Of a DNA stretch of 64,000 nucleotides, positions 1 to 64,000 are shown one piece after another. Location of the stretch: the sequence record OQ025076.1. One strand, 5' to 3'. The translations under genes were made by a program, and so were the position numbers. The DNA comes from Escherichia phage vB_EcoP_YF01. Every line of letters starts with the position of its first letter. Within the stretch, counting starts at the first letter, position 1. The notes beneath the pieces are model-generated. The model saw only the letters and a program-made list of their open reading frames with translations. It was not told the DNA's origin and did not search any database.

Positions 1-1020
1 TACATATCCACAAACTTTGACGCATCACGTTCCAGTCCTATTTATGGTCGCTCCACTGAGGAGATTCTGACCCGTAACTTTGTAGGTGTTTGGACTATCC
101 GTGCTCATGGTGGTTTTGTAGCAGCTAATACTTCTTGGTCTGTTATCAACAGTGGCAGCGCAGCTCCGGCTTTAAACACTTCTGTAGTTGGTGGTAAGGT
201 GGAATCTAAATACACTAACCCAACCTCTTCCCAATATGCTCGTATGTATATTTCCTCTTCTTGGGGAAGTGTTTGCTCTGCCGTGATTGAAGCACAAGGT
301 GCAAGTACTCACGCTTATAAGTTTTATGAGGATGGCACTGTTGATTTTAGGCAGTCTGGTAAGACAAACCCATTCCGCATGTACACACCAACTGGAATTT
401 GGACTGGACTGACGGATGCGGGGCCAAACAATTTAACCACCAATGGAATGGATAGGGTGGCGATTTCTAGTGGCTCTGACACAGTGGTGCGTGGGTACTC
501 TATTGGAGGGTCTAAACCTAATGGTTATCCAACCAAGGTTGGGTATCATATGTATTTGCCGGGAAATGACGCCTTCGGTATCGCCTGTACAATTATTGGA
601 GGAGACAACGGAAGGTTCTGTCGATATTTTTACGACATAGACGGGCAGATGTATGGCTCAACTAATTATGGAAACTTTAGCTATACAAAGAGTGGTGTCT
701 CGGATGAAAACCTGAAACATAACATTGTTGATATTGATGCAGAAAGAGCTATTGAAGTAATAAAAGGACTGAAGTTCAAATCCTTTGTTTACAACGATGA
801 TGAGAAGAATCGATCTCGTCGTGGTATCATTGCACAGCAGGCAGAGATGGTAGAACCTCTGTATGTTAAGACTCGCAAATACCCAGGAATGGAGAAAGGT
901 TCTCCAGAAATTGAGCAGAAAGAGCTAGACACTACTCCAATGCTCCTTGACACTATGCAAGTAGTTCAAGATCTTCTGAAGCGTATTGAAGTTCTGGAAT
1001 CGAAGTTAGCAGAGAAGTAA
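1..1020 (+). CDS. Tail fibre/tailspike protein, C-terminal part (5' end cut by window edge) with S74-type intramolecular chaperone domain
   Basis: Frame 1 is open from nt 1 to stop at 1018-1020. C-terminus has the motif SDENLKHNIVDID...GIIAQQAE typical of the self-cleaving chaperone domain of phage tail fibres/endosialidases. Confidence 0.6.
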   Translation, partial: YISTNFDASRSSPIYGRSTEEILTRNFVGVWTIRAHGGFVAANTSWSVINSGSAAPALNTSVVGGKVESKYTNPTSSQYARMYISSSWGSVCSAVIEAQGASTHAYKFYEDGTVDFRQSGKTNPFRMYTPTGIWTGLTDAGPNNLTTNGMDRVAISSGSDTVVRGYSIGGSKPNGYPTKVGYHMYLPGNDAFGIACTIIGGDNGRFCRYFYDIDGQMYGSTNYGNFSYTKSGVSDENLKHNIVDIDAERAIEVIKGLKFKSFVYNDDEKNRSRRGIIAQQAEMVEPLYVKTRKYPGMEKGSPEIEQKELDTTPMLLDTMQVVQDLLKRIEVLESKLAEK

Positions 1021-1023
1021 GAT

Positions 1024-1046
1024 AAGCCCCTTCGGGGGGCTTTAGT
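1024..1046 (+). terminator. Rho-independent terminator-like hairpin after tail fibre gene
   Basis: AAGCCCC-TTCG-GGGGCTT stem-loop followed by a short T tract. Confidence 0.45.
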
Positions 1047-1113
1047 AGTAAGTACCCTTAGTAAGTAATGAAACTAATATATCCCAAGAGGTTAATATAT
1101 AGGAGACACTCAA

Positions 1114-1332
1114 ATGAAAATGATGAAACAAGCTGCATATGGTTTAATATGTTTAGGCGCAGGTGTTGTGGTATCCACCGCAGTTCCTGTAGGCGCAGTT
1201 CATCCATTAGTAACTGTCCCTGCTCCAGTAGAGAAGCTCAGCTCTCAATGTAAGCAGAGAACAATTCAAAATAACTTAGTTGTTATTTGCCCTGATGCTG
1301 AATCTAACGCTCTGAGAAAGATACTACCTTAA
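1114..1332 (+). CDS. Small secreted/membrane protein (possible holin or lysis accessory protein)
   Basis: AGGAGA SD 8 nt upstream of ATG; N-terminal hydrophobic segment AAYGLICLGAGVVVSTAV; sits immediately upstream of the lysozyme gene. Confidence 0.35.
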   Translation: MKMMKQAAYGLICLGAGVVVSTAVPVGAVHPLVTVPAPVEKLSSQCKQRTIQNNLVVICPDAESNALRKILP

Positions 1333-1361
1333 TTTAAAGGGACTACAAAAGGAGGTTAGAA

Positions 1362-1853
1362 ATGGATAACGTCGCATTGCCACCTGTACAACTAAACTTA
1401 AGCCCAGCTGGAATGGAATTCATCATGAAGCATGAGGGTATGAGAACAAAGGCTTATAAAGATTCCGCGGGTATCTGGACGATATGTGTAGGGGCTACGC
1501 GCGATATGAATGGTTATCCGGTTAGACAAGGATTAACGTATTCTATAGAGGATTGTCTAGCTCTGCTAGATAGAGACACACAAGACTCTGTTCGTGCTAC
1601 TCAGAAGAACATAAAGGTTCCTTTACTAGTTCATGAGTTTGATGCACTCACTTCTTTCAACTTCAATGTTGGCAGTGGGGCTTTGAGCACATCTAAGTTA
1701 AGGAAGGTAATCAATGGAGATGTTAAGGGGGATGTTTATTCCGAATTTCTTCGTTGGGATAAAATAACGGTCAAGGGAGAGAAGCAGAGAAGTCAGGGTC
1801 TTCATAATAGAAGAGTTGCAGAAGCTAATCTTTACACCGAAGGTAAATATTAA
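1362..1853 (+). CDS. Endolysin, GH24 (T4-type) lysozyme
   Basis: GGAGG SD; motif EGMRTKAYKDSAGIWTICVGAT and overall phage lysozyme-family pattern; 163 aa. Confidence 0.8.
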   Translation: MDNVALPPVQLNLSPAGMEFIMKHEGMRTKAYKDSAGIWTICVGATRDMNGYPVRQGLTYSIEDCLALLDRDTQDSVRATQKNIKVPLLVHEFDALTSFNFNVGSGALSTSKLRKVINGDVKGDVYSEFLRWDKITVKGEKQRSQGLHNRRVAEANLYTEGKY

Positions 1854-1865
1854 TGGAGGTGCCTT

Positions 1866-2669
1866 TTGGCTATCGAAACTAATGCGGTAGTTATTACCGA
1901 CTTAAACCCGCTCTATCCTAGAGACAGGGATTACATCTACGAAGGGGCGGCTCAAATCCGCCTCATTAAACAAACGTTACAGAACACATTCCCCAATGTT
2001 ACAGAACCAGTTGATATAGATTCTGACACCTTTAAGATTATGTCAGAGAAGCTCAAGTTTACTGGTGATTCAATGGATGTTGGTGGTCTTATGATCAAGA
2101 ACGTTACTCCGGGAACTGGTGACAAGGATGTTGTTACTAAAGGCCAGATGGAAGCGTTCATGAAGAACTGGATGGAAAACAAGGTATTCCGTATTGGTGC
2201 TTACTATATCACTGAAGAGGATGTTAACCCCGGTGATTCTATCTCCTTAGGGTTTGGCTCTTGGGCTAAAGTGACTGGTGTTATCATGGGTACTGGTGTA
2301 GTAAACCCTGATGGTTCTGTCCCTAATGCTCAGAGGGTTGAGTTCCAAGCAGGTGGTACTGGTGGTCGTGTCTTCAATACCATTCGAACTGAGAACGTAC
2401 CTTTGATGACAGTTAATGGCTCCAGCTTCTCTCTATCCAGTAACACTCACAGTCACAATATGGTGTTTGGTCGTGGAGATGCTAGTGGTCATAACAGCTC
2501 ACCAAACTGGTATAGCCCGGGTGGTGGTTACAGCCAGAGAACTGATAATGACACACATACTCATACAATCTCTGGTAGTGTAAGTCTTGGTCGTGATGAT
2601 ATCTCTCGTCAACCTATTAACACTTTGCCACCATTCAGAGCAGCTCACATTTGGAGACGTATTAGCTAA
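1866..2669 (+). CDS. Virion structural protein, tail fibre-like (His-rich C-terminus)
   Basis: TTG start preceded by GGAGG; C-terminal HSHN/HTHT motifs resembling metal-binding tips of phage fibres. Confidence 0.45.
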   Translation: MAIETNAVVITDLNPLYPRDRDYIYEGAAQIRLIKQTLQNTFPNVTEPVDIDSDTFKIMSEKLKFTGDSMDVGGLMIKNVTPGTGDKDVVTKGQMEAFMKNWMENKVFRIGAYYITEEDVNPGDSISLGFGSWAKVTGVIMGTGVVNPDGSVPNAQRVEFQAGGTGGRVFNTIRTENVPLMTVNGSSFSLSSNTHSHNMVFGRGDASGHNSSPNWYSPGGGYSQRTDNDTHTHTISGSVSLGRDDISRQPINTLPPFRAAHIWRRIS

Positions 2670-2678
2670 GGAGGAATT

Positions 2679-5600
2679 ATGGCGCTGTATCCAATAAAGT
2701 CACTAGGTGCTGTAGGCGTTATCGCTGATCAGGCTCCGACAGACTTAGCTCCTAATGCTTTCACTAATGCTATAAATGCTCGATTTGTTGAGCAGAGAGT
2801 ATTTAAGACGGGGGGCAATGCCCCTCTTTCTTATGTAGATGAAGATAAGGATTTAACCCCTCTGTCTTTCGTTTCTATGCCTTTCGATTATTATAGCGCA
2901 GGTAATAGCTTTCTTGTTGTAGGTACGGATAAGAAGTTATATAAACTGACAGATGAAAGCTTGACTGATATTAGCCGTAAGGTTGCTACAGTCACTAAGA
3001 AGGCTTCTGCCTCAATTAAGATTTATCCAGTTGTTTCTCAAATCGTTCCTAAAGAATCAACTATTTCAATGAACTTCAATCAGACTAAGAATCTAGAAGT
3101 TTCTCTTCTTCCTGCTGATGCTAACAATACCGATCTTGTTTGGGAGGTTAGTAATTCATCTTATGGAAGTATTACAGTAGACCCTAGTGATTCTAAACTT
3201 GCTACTCTAACATCTTTTGAGAGAGAGGGTAATCTTGTAGTAACCATCTCTACTGCTGATGATTCTGTAGTGGCTCAGATTGCTGTGAACATTATAGACG
3301 GTGATTCGGGAATCTTCTTAAGTCAGGACACTGTTACTATCCGTAAAGGAGGGACTACCACCCTCACGGCTGTTACTGGCAAGACTCCTGTAACTTGGTC
3401 CAGCAGCAATGCTTCTATTGTATCTGTAACTCCTAACGCCAATTCCCTGACTGCTGTTATTACTGCTAATGGCGAGGGCAATGTAACAATCACTGCTGAC
3501 AATGGAACGAAGACTGCTTCTTGTGAGGTTGTTTCCATACCTCAGATTGACAGTATCACCTTAAGCCAGTCAGATGTGATAGTTAGTAGAGGTTCTCAGT
3601 ACATCTTAACCGCTACCATTTCTCCTGCTAACGCCCCTAATCAAAACATTACTTGGACCTCTTCTAATCCAAATATTGCAACAGTATCAGGGACTAGTAC
3701 ACAAGGGACAGTAAATGCTTTACTCGCTGGCTTTACTGAGATTACAGCTACCACTGAAGAAGGTAACAGGGTTGCTGTCTGTACTGTACGTGTAGATTTA
3801 GCTGGAAGGACGATGAGAACAAGTGCTATGGCATTTGCCGACCCTGCATCAGAACCAACGGAGACACAAGAGGAAGAAGTAGTAACCCCTATTGAAAGTG
3901 AAGAAGTGGTTTATTTTGCTGAGCCTAAGTCCAGTATTGATACGTCAGGAATGTACGAAGGTAATAGCTTCTACGACTATTCTAACGTAAATGATATTGA
4001 AGGTTTTGCAAGAGCTTCTTTACTAGCAACTCCTTTGTCATCCGTAACTTTAGATGTTGTCAGCGCCTCTCTCGATGTTGGTGAGGAAATAGTTATCACA
4101 GCTACAGCTTCTCCAGAAGGTGATTATTCTTATCAGTGGTCTGTTGATAAGACTGGTTATGTTTCTACAACTTCAGTTACTGGTAAATCTATCAAACTGG
4201 TTGCTCTTCGTAAAGGAGAGATTAACGTAACATGTACTGTTAGTCAGATGACTCAGAAGGATTATGATGCTTTTGATGATTACCCTTGGTATCACGCTGT
4301 TATCTCTAACTGTGCGGTTGCTACAACTCACTATGAAACTCCTCAGGTAAAAGAGTTCGAATCAGAATACTTTGTAGACCTTCCGGGGTGGGGTGAGCAA
4401 ACAGTTGTTGATAATGATGGAAACCCTTCAGTTAAGAAGTTTAACTGGAAATGTGAAAGAGTAAGATCTTTTAACAACCGTCTTTTTGCTCTGAATATGA
4501 GAGAGGCTAATGCTTCTGGTGTTACCACTAACTACCCGCTTCGTCTTCGTTGGTCTAACTTTGCCAATGAGAACAAGGCTCCTACACTGTGGGATGACTT
4601 TGCCTATGATCGAGTTGTGTCTTCGGACTTAGCTTCTAACATCGTAGGGCAGACTCAGGCTCTAGAGAATGGGTATGCTGGTTACATTGACTTAGCTGAC
4701 TCTAATGGTAGCTTGATTGATATCCTGCCTCTTAAAGATTACTTGTTCGTTTACACAGAGTTTGAAACGTATATTGGTTCTCCGACTAATAACACGTACC
4801 AACCTCTAATGTTCAAGAAGCTCTTTAACGACTCTGGTATCCTTGCTCCTGAGTGTGTGGTTGAAGTAGAAGGTAGCCACTTCGTAGTTACTCAGAACGA
4901 TGTAATCTTACACAACGGTGCAACCAAGAAGTCAATTGCATCTAACCGTGTTAAGAACATGTTGATTAACGAGGTGTGTCTGGTTAACCCTCTAGCAACT
5001 CGAGTACACTTGCATCAGGATAAGAAAGAAGTTTGGGTTCTGTACGTAGGTCCGGGAGAACCAAAAGAAAGCTTCGCTTGTACTAAAGCTGCTGTATGGA
5101 ATTATGAGTTTGATACTTGGTCTTTCCGTACTATCCCATATGCTCAGTGTATCGGTCTGGTTGATCCTCCTGTTTTAGAAAGAGGCCCAATCTGGTCTGA
5201 CTTCCAAGAAATCACTTGGGATGACCCATCTATTAAAGAACTCGTTTGGAGAAAGGATGCAACAAACTTTAGACAGAGGGTTACTATAGTAGGTTCATTC
5301 TTGAAGGGATTCTATCAAGTGGATGTAGGTGCTCTTGATTACTTCTATGACAGGCTAAATGATGTTGTTATAGAGAAGCCTCTGGAAATGAGGTTGGAGA
5401 GGACTGGTATAGATTTTGATAATGTGACGAATGAGTGGAATCAGAAGCATATTAACAGGTTCCGACCTCAGACAACTGGCTCAGGTACTTACATATTTGA
5501 AGCTGGTGGTAGTCAATTCTCGAATGAATATGGACACCCACACACATCTAAGACATATACGATCGGTGTTGACAGGCATGTCTCTGTGAGACTGAACCAT

Positions 5601-5696
5601 CCATACCTTTTCTATAATGTTATAGATAATGATGTTAACAGTAATGCTGCTATCAATGGTTTAACGATAGAGTTTGCTGTTGGCGGGCGGAGATAA
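2679..5696 (+). CDS. Large structural protein with tandem bacterial Ig-like (Big_2) domains
   Basis: AGGAGG SD; repeated ~80-aa units with the pattern ...T-[AV]-T-[IV]-SP.NA.NQ/...VTA...G.A.ITA, typical of Big_2 domains; 1005 aa. Confidence 0.6.
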   Translation: MALYPIKSLGAVGVIADQAPTDLAPNAFTNAINARFVEQRVFKTGGNAPLSYVDEDKDLTPLSFVSMPFDYYSAGNSFLVVGTDKKLYKLTDESLTDISRKVATVTKKASASIKIYPVVSQIVPKESTISMNFNQTKNLEVSLLPADANNTDLVWEVSNSSYGSITVDPSDSKLATLTSFEREGNLVVTISTADDSVVAQIAVNIIDGDSGIFLSQDTVTIRKGGTTTLTAVTGKTPVTWSSSNASIVSVTPNANSLTAVITANGEGNVTITADNGTKTASCEVVSIPQIDSITLSQSDVIVSRGSQYILTATISPANAPNQNITWTSSNPNIATVSGTSTQGTVNALLAGFTEITATTEEGNRVAVCTVRVDLAGRTMRTSAMAFADPASEPTETQEEEVVTPIESEEVVYFAEPKSSIDTSGMYEGNSFYDYSNVNDIEGFARASLLATPLSSVTLDVVSASLDVGEEIVITATASPEGDYSYQWSVDKTGYVSTTSVTGKSIKLVALRKGEINVTCTVSQMTQKDYDAFDDYPWYHAVISNCAVATTHYETPQVKEFESEYFVDLPGWGEQTVVDNDGNPSVKKFNWKCERVRSFNNRLFALNMREANASGVTTNYPLRLRWSNFANENKAPTLWDDFAYDRVVSSDLASNIVGQTQALENGYAGYIDLADSNGSLIDILPLKDYLFVYTEFETYIGSPTNNTYQPLMFKKLFNDSGILAPECVVEVEGSHFVVTQNDVILHNGATKKSIASNRVKNMLINEVCLVNPLATRVHLHQDKKEVWVLYVGPGEPKESFACTKAAVWNYEFDTWSFRTIPYAQCIGLVDPPVLERGPIWSDFQEITWDDPSIKELVWRKDATNFRQRVTIVGSFLKGFYQVDVGALDYFYDRLNDVVIEKPLEMRLERTGIDFDNVTNEWNQKHINRFRPQTTGSGTYIFEAGGSQFSNEYGHPHTSKTYTIGVDRHVSVRLNHPYLFYNVIDNDVNSNAAINGLTIEFAVGGRR

Positions 5697-5700
5697 CAAC

Positions 5701-5729
5701 AAGGGGCTTCGTGCCCCTTTTATTGTTTT
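5701..5729 (+). terminator. Rho-independent terminator
   Basis: GGGGC-TTCGT-GCCCC hairpin followed by TTTTATTGTTTT. Confidence 0.55.
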
Positions 5730-5739
5730 GGAGGAACTT

Positions 5740-6708
5740 ATGGGTGCAGGTGGTTTTCGTAAGAACACTGGTCGCAATAACACCACACTCCCGTACAACG
5801 TTGGGTTTCTCAATAATGTACAGGACACAGAAACATATAACGTAGCCGTATATGATGAGCTACAAAAAGTCAGTACAGCTACTAACCAAATGTTCCAAGC
5901 TATTGACGAGATTCACGATGAGATTGATGTTCGTATCAAAGCTCTTCATGCGATGAACTTACAATTCGATGAGCTTGAGAATAGAATTACTACAGAGATA
6001 GAGACAGCTATTGCCGATATCCAAACACAGATGGGGAACCTCTCCACTGAAGATATTTGGGATAATTCTGTTCAACCCCCTGTAAAATTAGAAAGCACTG
6101 TATCTGGCTTTAAAACAAGTATTGAGGGTAACACAACTAAGATTCAAACGGTAGAAGGTATTGTCAACGACCAAGGTCAAGAGATTGCTTTAGTTCAGAC
6201 AGAGATTCAAAATATTAACGGAAGCCTCTCTCAGTATATGAAGCTTTCTGAGTATGAAGCTACATGGGGAGTTAACTCTACAGTCAACGGAAGATATGCT
6301 GGGGTCAAGCTAACCAACAACGGAACAAACAGTCAATTCCAAGTAACAGCTAACAAGTTTATTGTTGGTGATGGTAGCTCTGGTAACACTCCTTTTGTGT
6401 TTGAGGGTGGAAGAGCTAGGATGGAGTTTGCTGATATAAAGAACGTCAATATCACAACAGCTCAGATTGCCAACGCTAGAATCCAATGGGCACAGATTGA
6501 TAACGTATCTATCTCCAATGCTCAGATTCAGAACTTATCAGCGGATAAAATTACTGCTGGTTCTATGTGGGGTTCTAACTGGAGACTTACCGTTGGGGGT
6601 GACTTTGTTATGGGTGGTACAGGTGGAGCACAATTGTGGATGAATGGAAACAGGATAGACTTCTATGATGGAAGTGGTGCTCTAAGAATTAGAATAGGGA
6701 GTTGGTAA
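5740..6708 (+). CDS. Tail fibre-like structural protein
   Basis: ATG at 5740 with GGAGG SD, downstream of terminator (track start 5674 lies inside the previous gene); N-terminal coiled-coil, C-terminal repeats NVNITTAQIANARIQWAQIDNVSISNAQIQNLSADKITAG. Confidence 0.5.
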   Translation: MGAGGFRKNTGRNNTTLPYNVGFLNNVQDTETYNVAVYDELQKVSTATNQMFQAIDEIHDEIDVRIKALHAMNLQFDELENRITTEIETAIADIQTQMGNLSTEDIWDNSVQPPVKLESTVSGFKTSIEGNTTKIQTVEGIVNDQGQEIALVQTEIQNINGSLSQYMKLSEYEATWGVNSTVNGRYAGVKLTNNGTNSQFQVTANKFIVGDGSSGNTPFVFEGGRARMEFADIKNVNITTAQIANARIQWAQIDNVSISNAQIQNLSADKITAGSMWGSNWRLTVGGDFVMGGTGGAQLWMNGNRIDFYDGSGALRIRIGSW

Positions 6709-53250: not shown

Positions 53251-53326
53251 TGGCCGGGACGGAAGGATTTGAACCCTCGTAAAGCGAGTTAGAAGCTCGC
53301 TGCCTTATCCACTAGACTACGCCCCG
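53251..53326 (-). tRNA. tRNA-Arg (anticodon UCU)
   Basis: 76 nt folded by hand: 7-bp acceptor stem (one G-U), D arm GUCU/AGGC, anticodon stem GCGAG/CUCGC with loop CUUCUAA (anticodon UCU), T arm GAGGG-UUCAAAU-CCUUC, discriminator G, encoded CCA. Confidence 0.85.
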
Positions 53327-55797: not shown

Positions 55798-56058
55798 TTA
55801 ATCCACCTTATTGGTAAGCCGAGCATTGCTGACCTTCTTGATGACTGTATTACCTTCATCCGTTGCAATAACGCCACAGGAAAGATTGATATAACTTCTC
55901 TTGTCTGTTGTCCCAAACTTCTGACTAGATAACATATAGTAATTCTCCCCATCCAGAGGGAACTGGAATACATCACCTGATTCTAAATCCCCAAGAGTTA
56001 AAACCTTTGGGGCGTTGTTCATATCAATTATCACTGTTAATCTCCTGCTGCTTAGCAA
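55798..56058 (-). CDS. Small early protein, paralog family member 7
   Basis: Pattern LTLGDLESGDVFQF...YYML...INLSCG. Confidence 0.45.
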   Translation of the reverse strand: MLSSRRLTVIIDMNNAPKVLTLGDLESGDVFQFPLDGENYYMLSSQKFGTTDKRSYINLSCGVIATDEGNTVIKKVSNARLTNKVD

Positions 56059-56320
56059 TAGCTACTCGCAAGTCTTCATTAGCACGAGCAAGGCGTAACA
56101 CTTCGTGGTTGAGGCTCTGAAGACGCTTGTTTCTGTCCTCAACTTGCATAATAAGATCGTTGAGTGTTACTTTAACTTTCTCATTATACATCTCATCCAC
56201 TCGAACTAGGGATTTATACATTCTCTCCCAGCTTGCTGCTTTGTTTCTTAGAACAATGAATCCTAGAACGCTGATAGTTAAACAGCTTACAAAAAGGAAT
56301 TTATATACTTCTAAAGTCAT
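56024..56320 (-). CDS. Membrane-anchored coiled-coil protein
   Basis: N-terminal TM FLFVSCLTISVLGFIVL then charged helical region. Confidence 0.45.
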   Translation of the reverse strand: MTLEVYKFLFVSCLTISVLGFIVLRNKAASWERMYKSLVRVDEMYNEKVKVTLNDLIMQVEDRNKRLQSLNHEVLRLARANEDLRVAIAKQQEINSDN

Positions 56321-56519
56321 ATTATTTACCCTTTATCAGAGATTAAAAGTAATATTATTTAAGTAAGTTATATTTAGTAAACTTATTTTCTAAGAAATTT
56401 TCAAAGGGTCTATATACAGAGCATTACCCATAGTCCCAGAATACTACCATCTTTTTCAATAAATTTACTAAGTGGTTGGTTTATAAAGGAATTTAGTTTG
56501 TCAAATCTGGCACTAGTGA

Positions 56520-56909
56520 TTATTCCCTAGAGCTGTTATCGAACACTAAATCACCACAATACATAGGATTGGCATACCATTTTGGCACCCCTTCGCTCTT
56601 ACTCTGAAAGTAAGTCCCACTGTACAGCGGAACATAATTCTTCTTAAGGGCACGTTTAGCAAGTCGCTCGCTTTCTCCAATGGCTTGCTTAGTCATCGGA
56701 TTTTTATCACGAATCAGCTTTACATAACGTTTATAAGGTTTCTCCTGTTTTAATAGTACCGGAATCCACTCAAACTGGTTCTTTTGTCTTATCACCTGTT
56801 CAGCGGTCAGTTTTCGTTGGGCCATTCTATTTATCACGGTATCCGCAACCATAGCTTTACATGCGGTTGGCTGATTCCCTGCCTCATAATAAATAGTCAA
56901 TGTCAACAT
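56520..56909 (-). CDS. Cell-wall hydrolase, SleB/CwlJ-like (Hydrolase_2 family)
   Basis: N-terminal signature LTIYYEAGNQPTACKAMVADTVINRMA resembling the SleB-family YYEA...AV..VVLNR motif. Confidence 0.55.
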   Translation of the reverse strand: MLTLTIYYEAGNQPTACKAMVADTVINRMAQRKLTAEQVIRQKNQFEWIPVLLKQEKPYKRYVKLIRDKNPMTKQAIGESERLAKRALKKNYVPLYSGTYFQSKSEGVPKWYANPMYCGDLVFDNSSRE

Positions 56910-56956
56910 TAGCTGGGCCGTTGTTATCAGAACTTGCTACCTCCTGTTTTACGGGC

Positions 56957-56984
56957 ATAAAAAAGCCCCAGCCGTAGCCGGGGC
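56957..56984 (-). terminator. Rho-independent terminator (minus strand)
   Basis: GCCCC-10nt-GGGGC hairpin followed by UUUUUUAU on the minus strand. Confidence 0.45.
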
Positions 56985-57043
56985 AAACCTGAAAGCAACA
57001 CATGACCGTTGCTATAAATACACTCGCAAATGCACTTACAGCA

Positions 57044-57069
57044 ACGCAAAAAGCCGCTCAAAGGCGGCT
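57044..57069 (-). terminator. Rho-independent terminator (minus strand)
   Basis: AGCCGC-CUUUGA-GCGGCU hairpin followed by UUUUUGCG. Confidence 0.5.
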
Positions 57070-57295
57070 ATGCGGAAGCTTCAAATGGGGAGAGGGAACG
57101 ACGCGACAGAAAGAGCGTCATAGTACTAAAAAGAGAGGCTATTGGAGAGGTTACTTATTGCCTTCCTTAATGCCTTGTTTTCTTGTTTAACCAAATCGTT
57201 TTCTTCTTGCAAGGATGCTACCAAATGAACCAGAACATCAACTACTGCATCACCTTGCCGCATCTCTCTGACTTTATTTAGAATCTCGGAATAAA

Positions 57296-57739
57296 TCATT
57301 TTACCCTCGCCTCTTTGATGGGATCAATGTATTTTTCAACGCCCCACTTGTGTTTACTGTCTGCGTAGAAAACATCAGGTGCGCACTGGCTTGTCTTAGG
57401 AAAAGCCTGCGGGTCTTTCGTGCTACCCTTAAACTTCTGTTTACCACGGGTGCGACCATTACAGAAGATTTCTAACTTCTTCTCCTCTTCTGTTTTTGCT
57501 CCCCCGCTCTTTAACAAAGAACGTTTATGATCGGCTAACAATAACGCATCAGCACGATGGACACGATGGCCTACACGTTTTGCCACACTGGAAGGAACAT
57601 GGGATTCAGCCTCAGCCTTTGCAGCACGACGTTTTAAACTACGCTTACTAACGTGATTAGTTGCCTTCGGTTTCTCTTTCTCTAGTTCAGAGATAGCAAA
57701 ACAACGCCCGCCCTTCATGCTGATTTTAGATTTAGCCAC
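57296..57739 (-). CDS. Hypothetical basic protein
   Basis: ORF in track; Lys/Arg-rich. Confidence 0.45.
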   Translation of the reverse strand: MAKSKISMKGGRCFAISELEKEKPKATNHVSKRSLKRRAAKAEAESHVPSSVAKRVGHRVHRADALLLADHKRSLLKSGGAKTEEEKKLEIFCNGRTRGKQKFKGSTKDPQAFPKTSQCAPDVFYADSKHKWGVEKYIDPIKEARVK

Positions 57740-57808
57740 AATCTTATTCCTTTTAGTGATAAGTTATATCGGGCAAGCCCATCAAGGCGATAGGCTTGAA
57801 CAAATAAC

Positions 57809-58018
57809 TTAATCAAGTAAACTAAACGATTTCCAACTACGTAGAAGGATTGTGCCATCGTCCATAACTACGCTTAATTGCAATAACTTTTTATTGATAC
57901 TACTTACCGTTGTAATTCGTCCGGTTGTACATTTACCTTTATTGCTATAAAGATACACTACACGACGACCTAACAGACGAGAGGGAGCTTTCTTAAACTC
58001 TGAAATATTAGTGATCAT
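57809..58018 (-). CDS. Hypothetical protein
   Basis: ORF in track. Confidence 0.4.
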   Translation of the reverse strand: MITNISEFKKAPSRLLGRRVVYLYSNKGKCTTGRITTVSSINKKLLQLSVVMDDGTILLRSWKSFSLLD

Positions 58019-58239
58019 AATGCTTGATACCTTTGAATATGTTCAATACGGGTGGATTGAGCAAACGACGCTTTAACAGCCATTTTTCTAACTTCTTCTT
58101 TACGCTGGTTAGTGTGTACAGTATCCCAATGACTATTATCACGTTGTCGTTGTAATATCTTACTGCATTTGCGATGGTTTCCCGTGCTGCGATGTTTCTC
58201 ACAAATAGGACACTTGCCAAAATTGCTACTGAATATCAT
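58015..58239 (-). CDS. Small zinc-binding protein
   Basis: GKCPICEKH...HRKCSK motif; alternative frame ORF 58008-58220 rejected. Confidence 0.4.
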   Translation of the reverse strand: MIFSSNFGKCPICEKHRSTGNHRKCSKILQRQRDNSHWDTVHTNQRKEEVRKMAVKASFAQSTRIEHIQRYQAL

Positions 58240-58463
58240 TTTCTTAATCCCATCTTTCTTAAGATACGGCCTAACGTTGTTTCTTGCGTGATAATATAGC
58301 TGATCGCTTCATGTTCCAACGTTTCAATCTTCATTGGTGACGGATACCATTCACCGGTAATAACACATTTACATTCAACGCCATACTTTTTAGATAGGCG
58401 GTAATGTTGACCGTTGACAAGATCCCTATAAATCGTGGTATTCGTAATTAACATGATCATCAC
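58236..58463 (-). CDS. Hypothetical protein
   Basis: ORF in track; ATGA coupling. Confidence 0.45.
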   Translation of the reverse strand: MMIMLITNTTIYRDLVNGQHYRLSKKYGVECKCVITGEWYPSPMKIETLEHEAISYIITQETTLGRILRKMGLRK

Positions 58464-58504
58464 CTTTGATTAAATTCTTTGATTAATGCACTGAATCAAT
58501 GCAC

Positions 58505-58540
58505 TGATAAAAGAAAAGGCGCTACCCGTTAAGATAGCGC
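58505..58540 (-). terminator. Rho-independent terminator (minus strand)
   Basis: GGCGCUA-10nt-UAGCGCC hairpin followed by UUUUCUUUUAU. Confidence 0.5.
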
Positions 58541-58565
58541 CTTATGTTTATTTAAATTGTCTTAC

Positions 58566-59474
58566 TTATGCCGCCTGACGTGCCGCCATAATTTCAGCCG
58601 CTTTACGCAATACTTCTTCCTCTTCTGCTTTCGCCGCTTGTTCGGTACGGGTAGCAACCGTTGAAGAGATACGACCGCGCAGACTCTCTAACTTCTCCTG
58701 CATAGCTGCAACAGTCTTTTCCATTTCATCAGCGTATGAATCGAGTGATTCTAATTCCTTGCTTGATGCGTTCATCAGATAATCATCCGAGATCGCTACC
58801 GTTGAGGCCGTGACTTTCTTGATGAGTGAATCAAAAGATTTCTTAACCTTTCCTACTTCTTCACTCAGGGCGATAGTGTTATCACTAGTTGCGCCGTTGC
58901 GCTCATCAGCCAGTAATTTGGCTTCAATACGGATTGCATTCAAGCGTTCAACTAAAGCGTAAATATCTTGATTAAAGTCTTCCTTGTTTTTCGCCGGGAT
59001 TTGCAGATGTGCCGCCACATTGTCATTGCAACCCTTGTAAAAGTTAGGGTTATCTACTTCAATTTCACGGCCTAAAGCAAAGTTTTCGAAAGCGTTTGAC
59101 CAGCGAGCGCGGTTTTGTTCCATTTTGGCCTTAATTTGCGCTTCTTTCGCGTCTTCTTTAGCTTTCGCCTCACCTTCCAGATTAATCCACTTTTTACGAC
59201 CATTTGCCGCATCGGTGTTAAACTTGATAGGAGTTAAGAAAGTAATTGCAGTGGCAATCACATCCATATCACGGAAACGTTCAGTTAACAAGAAGTCAAC
59301 CGCCGTCTGCAATACTTCCAGCTTTTTACCGTTACTGCGGAAGTGCTGTAAGTGCCCTAACAGGAAGTTAGAAACATCTTGTTTGATCGCCGCGTTATTG
59401 CTACGAATGTTGTTAGCCAGTGCATTAAAACCAGATTCGTTAACCAGAGTAAAAACTTTAGCCATGATATTCAC
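58566..59474 (-). CDS. Hypothetical coiled-coil protein (first gene downstream of the early promoter array)
   Basis: ORF in track, 302 aa, Ala/Lys/Glu-rich. Confidence 0.5.
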   Translation of the reverse strand: MNIMAKVFTLVNESGFNALANNIRSNNAAIKQDVSNFLLGHLQHFRSNGKKLEVLQTAVDFLLTERFRDMDVIATAITFLTPIKFNTDAANGRKKWINLEGEAKAKEDAKEAQIKAKMEQNRARWSNAFENFALGREIEVDNPNFYKGCNDNVAAHLQIPAKNKEDFNQDIYALVERLNAIRIEAKLLADERNGATSDNTIALSEEVGKVKKSFDSLIKKVTASTVAISDDYLMNASSKELESLDSYADEMEKTVAAMQEKLESLRGRISSTVATRTEQAAKAEEEEVLRKAAEIMAARQAA

Positions 59475-60386
59475 CTTTCAATTGTAAGGGCGCTATTGCC
59501 CCGCTCTCTATGAGCTTGTTTAAGTCACTATTAACTTATCTCTAACCACTCACTTTTTAAGTAGTTATAGGTAAGTGGGGCGGTCTTATCAGGAGTTAAC
59601 CTAGCCGCCCCATTATCCGTGATGTTTCATCTGGTATCTTTAATTAGTCGCTATAAACGAAGCCGACCTGATAGCGATGATCAATCATCACAATAAGGCA
59701 GTGCGTCCGACTCTAATTAGTTACTTTATTGTAACCGTCGGCAATATCGTCTACTTTGCTTTCGCTCTCGCCTATCCTTTTATACTAACTCTCAATCACT
59801 AACCATCGCCCACTACGGGAGGTTATTGTGAAAGAGTCATTAGCCGTCTAATATTCCGACGTTTTATATCTTTCGGCAAGTTTACTACATAAACTGATTA
59901 TGTACGCCATCAATAGTGGCCTCAAATCATTCACATCGTAAACGTTCACACTAAACCTTATTGTTAAATAGCAATTTGCTACTCTTTAACCACTCACCGC
60001 CGCTCGCAATTGAGCTTGTATTCGTCGGACTTGTCTACCCTGATTAACTTCTTTCACTGTAGCGCCTTGTTAGCGATGACCGCCGCTACCCTTAACCGTG
60101 GGCGATTAGCTTAAGTCTTTGCGTACACTCAATGAATCCGTTTATCAGTGGTGACGTTTCCAGCAAGGGATTGTAAGATTGTTTTCTCTGATAGTTTAGA
60201 GAATCTTACACCGTTTTATCTGGTATGTTATCCGATGGTTATTATCATCTAACATATTCAACCGATATAGGAGAATGTTTAAATTATTAAAGAGCGGTAA
60301 ATCTATCAGTGTGCTTTCTCACACTATGCAACTGTTAGCCGTTGTTACGCTTTTCACTGAAGCGGTGATTTGCTTAGTGAGTGCTC

Positions 60387-60415
60387 ATTATGAATCATGT
60401 TGTTTTCGCTGTCAA
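60387..60415 (-). promoter_or_regulatory. Sigma-70 consensus-like early promoter (minus strand)
   Basis: -35 TTGACA (60415..60410), 17-nt spacer, -10 CATAAT (60392..60387). Confidence 0.5.
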
Positions 60416-60877
60416 CCACTTTTTAATCTTTTTTCGTCGTTCCCGCTATTGGGAGGATATATCAATCAGCTTTATTTGATTGAAGACTAAGCGGTGATGC
60501 TTATCTTATGATTCATATTGTTAAAGAGCGGTTACTACATTTACAGCTTAACACATCGTGTTAGCTTGTCAAACTCTTTTTATCATCTTCTTTTAATTCC
60601 TTTCCCTTATCTCGCGTGAATCTATGCGAAAGGGCAAGATGATAAGTCTGATTTGTCTTTTAGGGAATCTAGTGCGCTTTCAAGCATTAATCTTTTGAAA
60701 GTATCGAACAAATAAGGCTTATTGATATTGCTTATTGTCCGCCTGCGTCACGTATGAATCAGGAATCAATTCTACCGATTAACTGAGCGCCTTATAGTAA
60801 TGACGTCGCCGCCACCCGTAAGACAAATCATATTTTTAAAGAGCGGGATGTTTTAAGTCATCGCTGACTGAGTGCTT

Positions 60878-60906
60878 ATTATGAATCAGGCTGTTTTCGG
60901 TGTCAA
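60878..60906 (-). promoter_or_regulatory. Sigma-70 consensus-like early promoter (minus strand)
   Basis: -35 TTGACA (60906..60901), 17-nt spacer, -10 CATAAT (60883..60878). Confidence 0.5.
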
Positions 60907-61084
60907 TACTCTTTTTAAGAATATTTTCACTTTCTAGCCTGATTTTTAAAGAGCGTAGCACTTTCATTGTGCGTCTTACTGTCGGTATTCCTACCGCTCC
61001 CCGTTGAAGCCTTTTACCGTGATGCTAATCACCTATCGAGGAGTTTTTACTACTTGTTGTTACTTACTGCTTACTACGGGATTC

Positions 61085-61112
61085 ATATTACTATACAGGA
61101 AAACCCTGTCAA
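61085..61112 (-). promoter_or_regulatory. Sigma-70 consensus-like early promoter (minus strand)
   Basis: -35 TTGACA (61112..61107), 16-nt spacer, -10 TAATAT; conserved block TAAATTCCTTTA 38 nt upstream. Confidence 0.45.
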
Positions 61113-61394
61113 TACCCTTTTTTCAAATTATTTTATATCTCACTGTTTTATAAAGGAATTTATTTTACTGACAGTAAGACACTACAACGGAATCAGGGGA
61201 TAAAGGAACGGGCGCGCGTGATACATCATAGGAAACGGCCTGTAACGCATCACAACGAGCTAAAAGGGAGTAAGGCATACAATCACCTTATAAAAGAGAA
61301 AAGCGCCATAGCGGCGCTTATAGGAAGGATTAGAGCGTAAGATAGATTATGACCATAGGCATGACTACGGCACAATACAGGAGAAAGATTAAGC

Positions 61395-61760
61395 CTATGG
61401 ATTTACACATTGACCTAAACCGGATTCTATTTCATTCATGGACTCATCAAAGAGTGTAAACGATGAGCGCATCAAGTGATCTACCGTGATTTGCTTACCA
61501 GTGGTTTCATTTACCAGTTGAATAGTTTTATCGTATGATTGTACATGTTCGAAATCATTCACATGTAAAATAATAACTTTAGGTGACTTTTTACCAGTAT
61601 CAAAGTTTTCTACAATATAGGTGCACTGTAAACCTTCCACCGTAGCAGGGGAGAATGTTGCAGCCTTTACACTACCCATAGCCGATAGCAGGACACCCAA
61701 CAGAAGAACAACCAGAAAGAAGCCTACAACCGTTTTAATGACGAATTTAATAAACCACAT
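61395..61760 (-). CDS. Membrane-anchored/secreted protein
   Basis: N-terminal hydrophobic segment VVGFFLVVLLLGVLLSAMGS. Confidence 0.45.
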   Translation of the reverse strand: MWFIKFVIKTVVGFFLVVLLLGVLLSAMGSVKAATFSPATVEGLQCTYIVENFDTGKKSPKVIILHVNDFEHVQSYDKTIQLVNETTGKQITVDHLMRSSFTLFDESMNEIESGLGQCVNP

Positions 61761-61859
61761 AGCAATAAACCTTTAGTTAGAGAATGTAAGAATAAATCAT
61801 ATCAGTGACGAATAGCAGGAAGGTCGCACCAAACAAGCAACGCCAAAAATAATCATGAA

Positions 61860-62132
61860 TCATTGGTTGCTATCCTCGCCAAAAAATGATACGCTGATTT
61901 GTTCCACTTCTTCCAGCGACAACAAAATCCCACGTTGGGCTAAATACTTCCCAATAGTTAGATAATCTTGCACTAAGCAGACAATAGGAAAGCGTATATT
62001 TTGTATCTCACCTTTAGAAAGAAAAGACAAATACCCAGCGTCGACTGATTCATCAAAGGATAACGTAACGCCACCGTAATTATGCGTGTCAATTAACGCA
62101 ATAGTTTCATTTCCCATTAATATCACCCTCAA
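61860..62132 (-). CDS. Hypothetical protein
   Basis: ORF in track. Confidence 0.4.
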   Translation of the reverse strand: MRVILMGNETIALIDTHNYGGVTLSFDESVDAGYLSFLSKGEIQNIRFPIVCLVQDYLTIGKYLAQRGILLSLEEVEQISVSFFGEDSNQ

Positions 62133-62373
62133 TTAATCCATGATTGAGCAGGTTAGCCAGTGATAAATCACCGTCAATATAGATTGATTTGAAGTCTTCA
62201 CGGGTAATTTCAAAATCAGCAAAGGCTAGCCAATCTTTAAGAGGCTGATATTCCATCCTGCAAAAAGTGATAACAGGTAACGTTATCTGACCATCAAGTG
62301 TATTAAACATGATAGATTGCTCGCCAACAAAACAAGAAAAGCCGTTTGATAATTTAACTTCTTTAATAGCCAT
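62107..62373 (-). CDS. Hypothetical protein
   Basis: ORF in track. Confidence 0.4.
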   Translation of the reverse strand: MAIKEVKLSNGFSCFVGEQSIMFNTLDGQITLPVITFCRMEYQPLKDWLAFADFEITREDFKSIYIDGDLSLANLLNHGLIEGDINGK

Positions 62374-62399
62374 TTTTACACTCCCAAAAAATAGATTAT

Positions 62400-63272
62400 T
62401 TACTTACTAGCCTTAATGCAGTTGGCTAAATTAACGTGAACGGTATAAACAGCGTTATCAGCGTTATTGTAAACAGTTGTAGCAATCATCGACTCATTGA
62501 TCGGGCCATAGCTCACTAGGTTGGTTACAGCTTTAACGTCTTCGTAACGTTGTACAGTGCCAAATGTCACCATATCCGCATCGTTATCGGTACGCTTGAG
62601 AACTAGATCACTGTTAGGCTGATTATCTAACGTTTTAGATTGAAAGAGAACGCCATCATTAGTAACGTTGCTAAATTTCACCTTTAGCACGATATTATTG
62701 CCGTCACTATCCGCACCGTTGCAAATCATCCAACCCTTATTGATGGAACTAGAGAAGACACTAGCCGCATCAGTTGCAGGAGCAGGACTAGCGATAGCCT
62801 TATCAGAAAGAGATGTGACCAGTGCACTAACACCGATAGCTGCAACCAGTGCATAACTTGCCAGATTAACAGACTTCATAATCTTACTTGCAACAGTAGG
62901 CTTGATTGGCTGTTTCTTGTTTTTCTTGTTCCATGCTTCAACCATGACAGACAAGCGGGATAATTCAGCTTTCACATCACGGCATGACTCAGGCCAATCT
63001 TTCTGATTCCAGCTATCTAAATTTGCCTGAATGTAACAGTTGATAGCGTCCTGCATATCGGTAAAGCCGTTTTCTTTGAACGTGCTTTCATCTTCACACT
63101 GTAAAGCGTTCGCAGTGGAATTAATGATTAAGCAAGCCAACATGATTGAGTTTTTGAATCCTTTACGTGCGCTTTCGTTTTCCATCCACGCATCAGGACT
63201 ACCAACGGATAAGCCTAAAGAGGAAAGACTTTCGTTTGCTTTGTTCAAGTGGTTAATTGCTACTTTAGACAT
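62400..63272 (-). CDS. Hypothetical protein with internal TM segment
   Basis: ATG 63272 with AAGGAA SD lies downstream of the promoter at 63310-63337 (track start 63341 would precede the transcription start); TM segment LASYALVAAIGVSALVTSL. Confidence 0.45.
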   Translation of the reverse strand: MSKVAINHLNKANESLSSLGLSVGSPDAWMENESARKGFKNSIMLACLIINSTANALQCEDESTFKENGFTDMQDAINCYIQANLDSWNQKDWPESCRDVKAELSRLSVMVEAWNKKNKKQPIKPTVASKIMKSVNLASYALVAAIGVSALVTSLSDKAIASPAPATDAASVFSSSINKGWMICNGADSDGNNIVLKVKFSNVTNDGVLFQSKTLDNQPNSDLVLKRTDNDADMVTFGTVQRYEDVKAVTNLVSYGPINESMIATTVYNNADNAVYTVHVNLANCIKASK

Positions 63273-63309
63273 TTGATATTCCTTATGGTTGATGAAAACT
63301 ACAATCGCA

Positions 63310-63337
63310 ACTATATAATAAAGGAAAAACCTGTCAA
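63310..63337 (-). promoter_or_regulatory. Sigma-70 consensus-like early promoter (minus strand)
   Basis: -35 TTGACA (63337..63332), 16-nt spacer, -10 TATAGT; conserved block TAAATTCCTTTA 38 nt upstream, the same spacing as at 61085-61112. Confidence 0.5.
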
Positions 63338-63480
63338 CCATTTATTTTCTAACTTTTTCATAACTCACTGAATACTAAAGGAATTTAATTTACTAAATTT
63401 TCTATACTCAGGGTATCAGCTTACTAGCTATTGTTACTTTATAACACCAATTCTACGGGCAGCAGACCAACAGACCAGGA

Positions 63481-63908
63481 CACGGGGAGAATACAACCGC
63501 AGGACAGACCACGGGGAAACATAGCAAGATAGTGCGGTAATAATATACCACTTAAATAATTAGTTAACTATTAATAGCATTACTCAAACATCAAAGACGT
63601 TCGCTACGCTCACAAAGGCACGCTGAAAAAGAAAAGAATAAAAGAAATAATAAACATCAAACATAATCTTTCCACTTAATTAATACATACATCATTATTG
63701 CACTCATAATCATCACTATTGAAACTATTTACACTCAAACTATGGGGAGCTGAACGGTAACAATACGGTATTATTAGACCTGTTATGATTGTGCCTTATC
63801 AGAGTATAGCCTTTCTCTCACTCTCTAAAGGGGTACTAAATAAACGGGTAGCTAATGAATAGGATGGTATACACGGGGAAAGAATAACGGGGAGTAGGCA
63901 CGGGGAAA
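63481..63908. repeat. Dispersed ACGGGGA(R)A direct repeats in terminal ORF-free region
   Basis: CACGGGGAGA 63481, ACGGGGAAAC 63511, ACACGGGGAA 63871, AACGGGGAG 63886, CACGGGGAAA 63899. Confidence 0.5.
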
Positions 63909-64000
63909 CGCTGGAACGTGGGAGGAGGTGTAAAGGCATTGCCAATAACCCTTTTTTAAATGAGGACTCCCCCTTTTTAGGAAACGCGCGGCGAGCGGCT

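Follow-up and report, generated by a model that had tools for sequence, protein, structure and literature searches.

The stretch of DNA analysed here, called the window throughout, comprises 64,000 nucleotides (nt) of Escherichia phage vB_EcoP_YF01 (sequence record OQ025076.1), a phiEco32-like (Kuravirus) coliphage. This report concerns a ~1.9-kb "spacer" (positions 59475-61394), the gap between the homologues of phiEco32 gene 125 and gene 124. Every gene around this gap is read on the minus strand, and in that direction the elements follow each other in the order terminator, four promoter-BoxA units, a large structured RNA, gene 124 and a second terminator at 58543-58516. Over 59400-61450 (minus strand) the window shares 90-93% identity with phiEco32 (72721-74786) and SU10 (72495-74562), and the locus is carried by about 100 Escherichia/Shigella phage records. 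In annotated relatives the spacer is without genes, and of all gene-free stretches in the loci compared it is the longest. An early promoter cluster has already been published for phiEco32 and SU10 (PMC4281155); beyond it we did not find the spacer described in the literature, and Savalia 2008 and Pavlova 2012 may discuss the region. To all appearance, neither the identity of its repeats as BoxA elements nor the large covarying RNA (about 0.85 kb) has been described before.

Promoters and BoxA elements of the spacer

A reading made from the sequence alone (hereafter the sequence-only reading) had proposed three minus-strand promoters with perfect -35 hexamers, and all three were found where it had placed them (P_A, P_B and P_D in Table 1). 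A fourth TTGACA, belonging to the candidate promoter P_C, was missing from its list; at this position SU7, NC-B, Bas88 and EK010 have TTGACA-16-TAGAAT with a TG upstream. All four -35 hexamers have a similar A-tract ahead of them (AAAAAG-N3-5), the -35 and -10 hexamers are spaced by 16-18 nt at the published location, and their positions are conserved in relatives. The distance from P_D to the gene-124 ATG is about 942-959 nt in each of the 15 close relatives scored. The number of promoter-like sites in the region 56000-64000 (20 against 21.7 expected) is not above that in shuffled sequence, hence the case for these sites rests on their perfect -35 hexamers, their clustering and their conservation. 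The sequence-only reading was thus right to see a strong early promoter cluster here, as published for the two related phages. It had been too generous with the imperfect direct repeat around P_B and P_D, which covers only 44-56 nt at 84-86% identity instead of ~85 bp.

The same reading had placed iterons inside these promoter repeats. The "iteron" TTAAAGAGCG is CGCTCTTTAA on the transcribed strand, and its four copies lie on one strand only, each downstream of a promoter and outside the promoter repeat. They match GYTCTTTAANA, the consensus of functional BoxA elements of gamma-proteobacteria (Baniulyte 2017, PMC5725501). This consensus has six matches in the window where 0.46 are expected, a number reached by none of 100 shuffles, and four perfect sense-strand matches fall inside 670 nt, one after each promoter. 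Together with its 5′ C, BoxA-3 reads CGCTCTTTAACAA and shares 12 of 13 positions with the rrn sequence TGCTCTTTAACAA, while BoxA-4 reads CGCTCTTTAACAATTTA in several relatives. The core GCTCTTTAA occurs in 93 sense-strand copies in the spacers of 23 related genomes (46 kb) and not once in 113 kb of flanking sense strand; the antisense strand holds seven copies over the 23 loci. All 93 copies keep GCTCTTTAA-N-A and the downstream A-A-T is constant, whereas the flanks of the motif vary; an invariant core in variable surroundings suggests that the motif is under selection. The extended phage consensus cGCTCTTTAAnAAT is similar to rrn TGCTCTTTAACAATTTA.

In the 15 close relatives scored, four to six perfect BoxA sites per spacer alternate with consensus promoters. 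The upstream promoter-BoxA units vary in number and spacing, and the last BoxA lies about 825-836 nt ahead of the gene-124 ATG in all 15. The 18-nt block AGATTTACCGCTCTTTAA at BoxA-4 is the longest invariant run of the whole RNA. When the four nascent 5′ segments are folded thermodynamically, the U-rich core of BoxA is predicted to be largely unpaired, as it is in the rrn leader, with the 5′ CCGC paired in some of the folds. A hairpin with three covarying pairs (60325-60308) stands 12 nt ahead of BoxA-4 and a small one (GCAC...GUGC) just 5′ of BoxA-1, while units B and C have none; directly 3′ of the BoxA copies, neither the alignment structure nor the nascent folds contain a conserved hairpin. 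A perfect CGCTCTTTAACAA is also found on the non-transcribed strand at 57505-57517 (+), within the open reading frame (ORF) of the gp120 homologue (57296-57739, minus strand); this site and the antisense copies of GCTCTTTAA may be due to chance or may mark an antisense transcript.

A large structured RNA ahead of gene 124

The leader between P_D and gene 124 is a large structured RNA of ~830 nt in the window and 870-970 nt in distant relatives. The alignments were made with E-INS-i and a covariance model, and the close set consists of 24 sequences from P_D to the ATG with a mean column identity of 89%. RNAalifold assigns to it 239 pairs with a covariation term of -25 kcal/mol. Standard pairs fill 99.3% of the paired cells, compared with 94.2% in shuffled alignments and 33-46% when the partner is slid by 1-3 columns. 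Changes on both sides of a pair are seen in 70 pairs (35.8 +/- 3.2 shuffled, 4-10 slid) and in 329 cells (87 shuffled, 10-32 slid), and none of 500 shuffles reaches the observed values. The single-sequence minimum free energy of the window RNA has a z-score of -5.7. The covariance analysis across related phages that the sequence-only reading had suggested thus strongly supports the non-coding RNA which was among its options, with a conserved, covarying structure spanning about 830 nt.

Homologues of gp124 with 46-70% identity are encoded on metagenomic phage contigs of 15-100 kb, and ten such loci make up a distant set. Each has one to three perfect sense-strand BoxA sites, with none on the antisense strand and none downstream of the gene start, and the last BoxA lies 870-971 nt ahead of the ATG. 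A TTGACA promoter is present about 100 nt upstream of the last BoxA in L044, L047, L050, L051, L055, L045 and L052; the gp124 homologues of the first five of these are 49-51% identical. Although the distant RNAs share only 48-62% identity with the window RNA, an alignment of 14 close and the ten distant sequences made by sequence only retains 124 pairs at 94.7% pairing (35-43% slid), with double changes in 95 pairs (35-40 slid, 58 +/- 4 shuffled). A covariance model of the 3′ domain (R1, 59483-59617) built from close sequences only has a single match in the window (152.8 bits) and one in each of the ten distant loci, immediately ahead of the gp124 homologue (E 6e-20 to 4e-3). In the R1 alignment 34 of 35 pairs show compensatory changes, a count that is flattered by the fit of the alignment to its own model. 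R1 finds no match in phages 7-11, GAP52, T5 or Stubb, and the right ends of 7-11 and GAP52 contain no BoxA either. A metagenome scan with an invariant 18-mer gave 17 stretches, of which only about seven are true relatives. RNA, BoxA array and gp124 occur jointly and are restricted to the Kuravirus/Suseptimavirus group and uncultured relatives. In L045, L047 and L048 about 3 kb ahead of the gp124 homologue (about 1000-4000) are free of genes and border divergently oriented genes.

A covarying long-range helix (A1 columns 114-126 paired with 403-417) closes domain I, and covarying helices (A1 columns 438-456 paired with 706-722) close domain II. Two hairpins near the 3′ end had been proposed from the sequence. 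GGGGCGG...CCGCCCC is present at 59611-59577, covaries in three pairs and carries an invariant 18-nt loop, AGGTTAACTCCTGATAAG; in place of the TCGCTAT/ATAGCGA pairing, the alignment supports an overlapping covarying helix at 59668-59646 (GGTCGGC.../...AGCGACT). A helix between the BoxA flank and the Shine-Dalgarno sequence, proposed by RNAalifold, was discarded because it shows no covariation and is broken in two sequences, TH42 and Bas88. Three further observations concern the RNA itself. A degenerate BoxA-like sequence, GCTATTTAACAATAAGG, at 59972-59956 (minus strand) is invariant, with an A in place of the critical C4; it takes part in two helices, as the 3′ half of the linker hairpin and as the 5′ strand of the domain II closing helix, and distant homologues keep UUUAACAAU. 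A motif C(A/U)GAU(A/G)AA(A)C..GG, spotted by eye, recurs in loops and junctions at about 60223-60212, 60148-60137, 59632-59617 and 59592-59580 (minus strand) and could be a repeated protein-binding or tertiary-contact motif. Finally, the segment after BoxA-2 (60821-60779, GGGTGGCGGCGACGTCATTACTATAAGGCGCT) is 78% identical to part of domain I (60095-60053, GGGTAGCGGCGGTCATCGCTAACAAGGCGCT) on the minus strand, and by this resemblance the variable upstream units may be carriers of paralogous RNA modules.

The RNA could be assigned to no described family. Rfam 15, which includes GOLLD, ROOL, OLE, tRNA, rRNA and riboswitches, was scanned over 8 kb with a cutoff of E <= 1 and over 1.7 kb with a cutoff of E <= 10, and gave noise only (E 0.3-9, with scores far short of the gathering thresholds); ARAGORN finds no tRNA in the spacer, and blastn found no match to the RNA in 5,426 Escherichia coli genomes or PLSDB. 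With GOLLD, ROOL and OLE it shares a length above 500 nt, a conserved multi-domain structure with strong covariation, a phage context and the want of an assigned function. It differs from them in having no Rfam 15 match even at E <= 10 and in its hosts, which are enterobacterial virulent podophages, and to our knowledge neither a BoxA/promoter array nor a fixed link to gene 124 is among the features described for these RNAs.

Table 1. Features of the gene 125-124 region of the window, in the order of transcription (aa, amino acids; positions inferred for transcription starts are relative to the named promoter).
Feature	Position	Strand	Remarks
Gene 125 homologue	61395-61760	-	121 aa
Intrinsic-terminator-like hairpin and T-run	61301-61319	-	8-bp stem, 5 GC pairs, tail TTCTCTTTTA
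Promoter P_A	61085-61112	-	TTGACA-16-TAATAT; A-tract GAAAAAAGGGTA upstream; kept in phiEco32, SU10, EK010
BoxA-1 GCTCTTTAAAA	60944-60954	-	Perfect GYTCTTTAANA; about +125 from inferred P_A start
Promoter P_B	60878-60906	-	TTGACA-17-CATAAT; A-tract TTAAAAAGAGTA upstream
BoxA-2 GCTCTTTAAAA	60834-60844	-	Perfect GYTCTTTAANA; about +27 from inferred P_B start
Candidate promoter P_C	60545-60572	-	TTGACA-16-(TGt)TAAGCT; A-tract ATAAAAAGAGT upstream; -35 at 60572-60567
BoxA-3 GCTCTTTAACA	60519-60529	-	Perfect GYTCTTTAANA; about +10 from inferred P_C start
Promoter P_D	60387-60415	-	TTGACA-17-CATAAT; A-tract TTAAAAAGTGG upstream
Two 5′ hairpins	60308-60344 (60344-60329, 60325-60308)	-	1 and 3 covarying pairs; just upstream of last BoxA
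BoxA-4 with flank	60285-60304	-	Contains 18-nt block AGATTTACCGCTCTTTAA at 60304-60287
BoxA-4 11-mer	60285-60295	-	Perfect GYTCTTTAANA; about +86 from inferred P_D start
RNA domain I	59985-60283	-	About 300 nt, multi-helix; helices 5-18, many compensatory pairs
Linker hairpin	59966-59984	-	3′ side is the invariant BoxA-like GCTATTTAA
RNA domain II	59690-59964	-	About 275 nt; helices 20-32; helix 27 covaries at 6/6 pairs
3′ hairpin array	59487-59689	-	Includes GGGGCGG hairpin 59611-59577
Shine-Dalgarno AAAGGTGA and gene 124 homologue	58566-59479	-	ATG 59465, stop 58566, 299 aa
Strong intrinsic-terminator-like hairpin	58516-58543	-	12-bp stem; directly after gene 124

From the arrangement in Table 1, gene 124 is likely to be co-transcribed with the RNA, and the unit probably ends, at least partly, at the hairpin that follows the gene; the SU7 record has a terminator annotated at the equivalent place. 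The product of gene 124 is mostly helical or coiled coil and has only sub-threshold coiled-coil matches in Pfam. It belongs to a PHROG family without assigned function, and its AlphaFold2 model (predicted local distance difference test score, pLDDT, 71.6) is helical, with no fold match in the PDB (best E 0.27). At the other end, the hairpin at 61301-61319 would, judging by its sequence, close the upstream early operon (gene 128-125 homologues) just ahead of the promoter array, and a terminator is annotated at the equivalent place in the SU10 record. Between this hairpin and P_A lies a 37-codon ATG ORF (61165-61278, minus strand) with a good Shine-Dalgarno sequence, AAGGTGA.

As to the neighbouring genes, the product names "terminase" (121 aa), "polymerase" (87 aa) and "tail protein" given to phiEco32 genes 125, 127 and 119 in RefSeq/PHROG look like annotation artefacts; the 121-aa gene 125 homologue has one Pfam match only, which is sub-threshold. 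A tRNA-Arg(TCT) gene is present at 53251-53326 (minus strand) and has also been reported for SU10 and SU7. A weak MicX-like Rfam match at 56957-57083 (minus strand), overlapping with two terminator-like hairpins, can probably be dismissed as noise (E 0.32; 20.9 bits, where the gathering score is 75).

An rRNA operon-like reading and its rivals

We consider it probable that the region is an early unit organized like an rRNA operon, in which BoxA would recruit host Nus factors and thereby allow the polymerase to resist Rho across the structured untranslated RNA as far as gene 124. Soon after infection the four tandem sigma-70 promoters with their A-tracts would fire on the minus strand, and BoxA RNA identical to the host consensus would emerge about 10-125 nt past each start. 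NusB/NusE would bind the nascent BoxA and be joined by NusA, NusG and probably SuhB, giving a Rho-resistant RNA polymerase, the form that is used on rrn operons and on arrays of clustered regularly interspaced short palindromic repeats (CRISPR). Such a conversion should be needed because the next 0.85-1.6 kb are untranslated and would otherwise be a target for Rho. The cargo would consist of the ~830-nt RNA (5′ hairpins, BoxA, two closed domains and 3′ array) followed by gene 124 and its terminator. On rrn operons the complex also promotes the formation of long-range rRNA helices, and it may assist the long-range helices of the phage RNA as it does those of 16S rRNA. The mechanism is of a known kind, namely BoxA/Nus anti-termination of an untranslated RNA; the setting and the cargo are new. 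BoxA bound by NusB/NusE together with NusA, NusG and SuhB makes the polymerase resistant to Rho (PMC7665894, PMC5725501), and BoxA shields long untranslated CRISPR transcripts in this way (Stringer 2020, PMC7665894). A phage transcript whose first gene comes only after 0.85-1.6 kb of untranslated RNA faces the same difficulty, and a BoxA placed just behind every start is the predicted solution; the presence of BoxA in turn gives independent support that the RNA downstream is meant to be untranslated and full-length.

The resemblance to the rrn leader of E. coli, which we read on the chromosome for comparison (P2, hairpin GCCGCTGAGAAAAAGCGAAGCGGC, then TGCTCTTTAACAATTTATCAG, then TGTGTGGG), extends to several features. 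Both have tandem strong sigma-70 promoters with A/T tracts upstream, and in both a hairpin is followed by BoxA with the same core and 3′ extension (rrnC GCTCTTTAACAATTTA, phage NC-B ACCGCTCTTTAACAATTTA). The rrn order of boxB hairpin and boxA is found again where the hairpins 60344-60308 precede BoxA-4, and a long untranslated structured RNA with long-range closing helices lies downstream in each case. The two differ in that the phage has BoxA once per promoter, four to six times in all, and carries a ~0.85-kb phage-encoded cargo followed by a protein gene; it has no boxC, and its RNA is similar neither to rRNA nor to any E. coli genome. After BoxA, rrnC continues ...CAATTTATCAGACAATCTGTGTGGGCAC and the phage ...AATTTAAACATTCTCCTATATCGG, without a GU-rich box. 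Like the BoxA of CRISPR arrays and of the suhB 5′ untranslated region, where it blocks premature Rho termination (PMC7665894, PMC5725501), the phage sites would work without a lambda N protein and stand at the start of a long untranslated transcript. Those sites are single and host-encoded, in contrast to an array ahead of a structured RNA in a virulent phage, and the suhB BoxA acts negatively, unlike the role proposed here. With the lambdoid nut sites the phage shares the position of BoxA near the start of an early transcript and, by our interpretation, the use of host NusB/NusE. The lambda boxA is a weaker variant, CGCUCUUA, whereas the phage sites match the rrn form fully, have no conserved boxB hairpin directly 3′ and belong to a virulent phage; no N-like protein was identified in it, by analyses that included no search aimed at N homologues.

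Several points weigh against this interpretation. Reading by eye against rrnC, we saw no rrn-type boxC (UGUGUGGG) after any phage BoxA. The members of the close set are only 73-95% identical, so that many compensatory cells are inherited and not independent events, and R1 shapes the very alignment on which its pairs are counted. No covariation backs the long-range pairing of the BoxA flank with the Shine-Dalgarno sequence, which two sequences break. Searches with gp124 in Pfam, PHROG and by fold gave no functional clue. Nor does anti-termination of the whole 50-kb early region follow from the model, given the intrinsic terminator after gene 124 and the mainly anti-Rho action of rrn-type complexes. 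Binding of Nus factors, resistance to Rho and a role of the RNA would all be deductions from what was observed directly, that is the motifs with their strand, order and conservation, the RNA structure with its covariation and the absence of coding capacity. In the literature we found neither expression data for this phage group nor measurements of Nus binding or of Rho action, and no link of phiEco32-like/Kuravirus phages to boxA, antitermination or a non-coding RNA; Savalia 2008 and Pavlova 2012 may differ in both respects. A base composition avoiding Rho was considered and rejected: the C/G ratio of the RNA (0.80) is no different from that of the neighbouring coding sequence (0.78) and is thus uninformative in this regard.

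Other explanations account for parts of the data. One reading, which we judge rather unlikely, sees in the structured RNA nothing but a 5′ leader that acts in cis on gene 124 and on the early genes downstream, with no function in trans; such a leader might shield the 5′ end from RNase E, provide sites for RNase III, as the T7 early leader does, or regulate the translation of gp124. It is true that the RNA immediately precedes the gp124 homologue in every case, that their distance is constant and that no terminator separates them, and the coaxial closing helices of domain II, about 22 bp with internal loops, have roughly the size of an RNase III site. Processing by RNase III, which the sequence-only reading had listed among its options, may occur whichever role the RNA has. 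However, at 830-970 nt, with its two closed multi-helix domains and a number of invariant loops, the RNA goes well beyond the needs of known stabilizing leaders, and the pairing with the Shine-Dalgarno sequence that RNAalifold proposes, and that would count in favour of such a leader, fails to covary and is broken in TH42 and Bas88. The invariance of loops such as AGGTTAACTCCTGATAAG speaks for specific contacts beyond the helices alone. We give almost no credence to the idea that the spacer is a decayed or unrecognized coding sequence, be it a pseudogene or a set of small ORFs. Some records do annotate hypothetical proteins in it, and the claim that the leader has no ORF over 20 codons was strictly wrong, since the transcribed strand has five GTG/TTG-started ORFs of 21-33 codons, but none of these is conserved and the leader remains gene-free. 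An ATG ORF of 71 aa on the opposite strand (60275-60490, +) was rejected as a gene; in relatives, frameshifts give it lengths between 28 and 74 aa. Every frame is rich in stops (16-41 per ~310 codons), the variable columns are spread over the three codon positions as 143/126/126 with no 3-base periodicity, and substitutions fall in compensating pairs that keep the RNA helices.

That the region is or contains a replication origin, primed or activated by transcription from the promoter cluster and with the repeats as iterons, seems improbable. An origin would be at home in the longest gene-free stretch among the loci examined and next to strong promoters, we found no mapped origin of these phages in the literature, the GC content dips slightly, and ColE1 RNA II, a folded primer RNA, sets a precedent for structure that is conserved at an origin. 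T7 offers a parallel too, as its early region combines tandem A1-A3 host promoters, a short RNase III-processed leader and a transcription-activated origin downstream, and both phages have a strong host-type promoter cluster followed by a leader at the early-gene end of the genome; we know of no BoxA array or ~0.85-kb covarying RNA described for T7. The analogy with its origin is not supported in the phage spacer, where 59475-61394 holds no DnaA box with up to one mismatch and the GC content falls only from about 0.41 to 0.36-0.37 (60150-60750), with no marked AT-rich unwinding stretch. The supposed iterons are not of the origin type, being strand-specific, irregularly spaced (110, 315 and 234 nt), variable in number, always placed after a promoter and identical to the host BoxA consensus, which implies read-through by the polymerase. 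Selection on RNA pairing across all 830 nt, moreover, is required by no known transcription-activated origin. An equally low probability attaches to the BoxA array acting mainly as a sponge that would titrate NusB, NusE(S10) and SuhB off the rrn operons of the host and thereby stop its production of ribosomes, instead of protecting phage transcription. Four to six BoxA sites per spacer, behind consensus promoters with A-tracts and always perfect while their copy number varies, would fit such a function, as would the autoregulation of Nus factors, which suggests that their levels matter (PMC5725501). Yet one BoxA per promoter beside the 5′ end is exactly what anti-termination in cis predicts, and a sponge leaves the conserved 830-nt structure downstream unexplained; titration is compatible with the rRNA operon-like unit rather than an alternative to it.

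As to the cargo of such an rRNA operon-like unit, our best guess is an abundant early RNA or ribonucleoprotein that takes part in host takeover, possibly with gp124. A role as early ribonucleoprotein or decoy is favoured over that of a mere stabilizing leader because of the size of the RNA, its invariant loops and its fixed link to gp124, and this too is a guess.

Wider occurrence and significance

The combination of promoter and BoxA is not confined to this group. At least 120 IMG/VR contigs match the pattern TTGACA-N16-18-NATAAT-N15-45-BoxA, whereas by a rough estimate only a few would be expected by chance. Among the matches listed, none of the 118 loci examined has a 16S gene start within 1.5 kb downstream, and in 30 of 99 the next ATG ORF (>=60 aa) is 500 nt or more downstream, which is a crude measure. 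BoxA-led untranslated RNAs may thus be common in phages. In the pre-early terminal repeat of the T5-like Proteus phage Stubb, near A2, a perfect BoxA occurs four times (4811-5776, minus strand), in three cases behind a consensus TTGACA promoter, and the T5-like Proteus phage PM135 also carries such sites; T5 itself has one perfect BoxA at 4988 (minus strand) in its pre-early region, after a GC-rich hairpin. We found no paper that ties BoxA to T5-like phages.

A bolder proposal, which we regard as possible but doubtful, is that Kuravirus-type phages encode a hitherto unrecognized class of large (0.85-1 kb) multi-domain RNA, made at a very high level within minutes of infection from an rrn mimic, shielded from Rho and chaperoned in its long-range folding by the Nus complex, and acting in trans in host takeover or counter-defence, possibly with gp124, where it might for example sequester a host RNA-binding factor, a ribosomal component or an immune sensor; N-free use of BoxA would then perhaps be common in virulent enterobacterial phages. 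Rho is a known barrier to foreign DNA, and a virulent phage that borrows the full-strength rrn signal without an N protein would explain how its early RNA, where this is long and poorly translated or not translated at all, escapes from Rho. How such phages anti-terminate "remains to be defined" according to the study of phage 7-11, which itself lacks these BoxA sites. The structured RNA appears to be new, has unusually clear covariation and occurs in E. coli phages with a worked-out transcription programme (sigma factor gp36, gp79); growth on E. coli and a known programme should allow its study with far less difficulty than is usual for large orphan RNAs. Most of what the early region contains in regulatory elements and RNA lies in a 2-kb "spacer" that is empty in about 100 GenBank records, and phage engineers should not treat it as dispensable.

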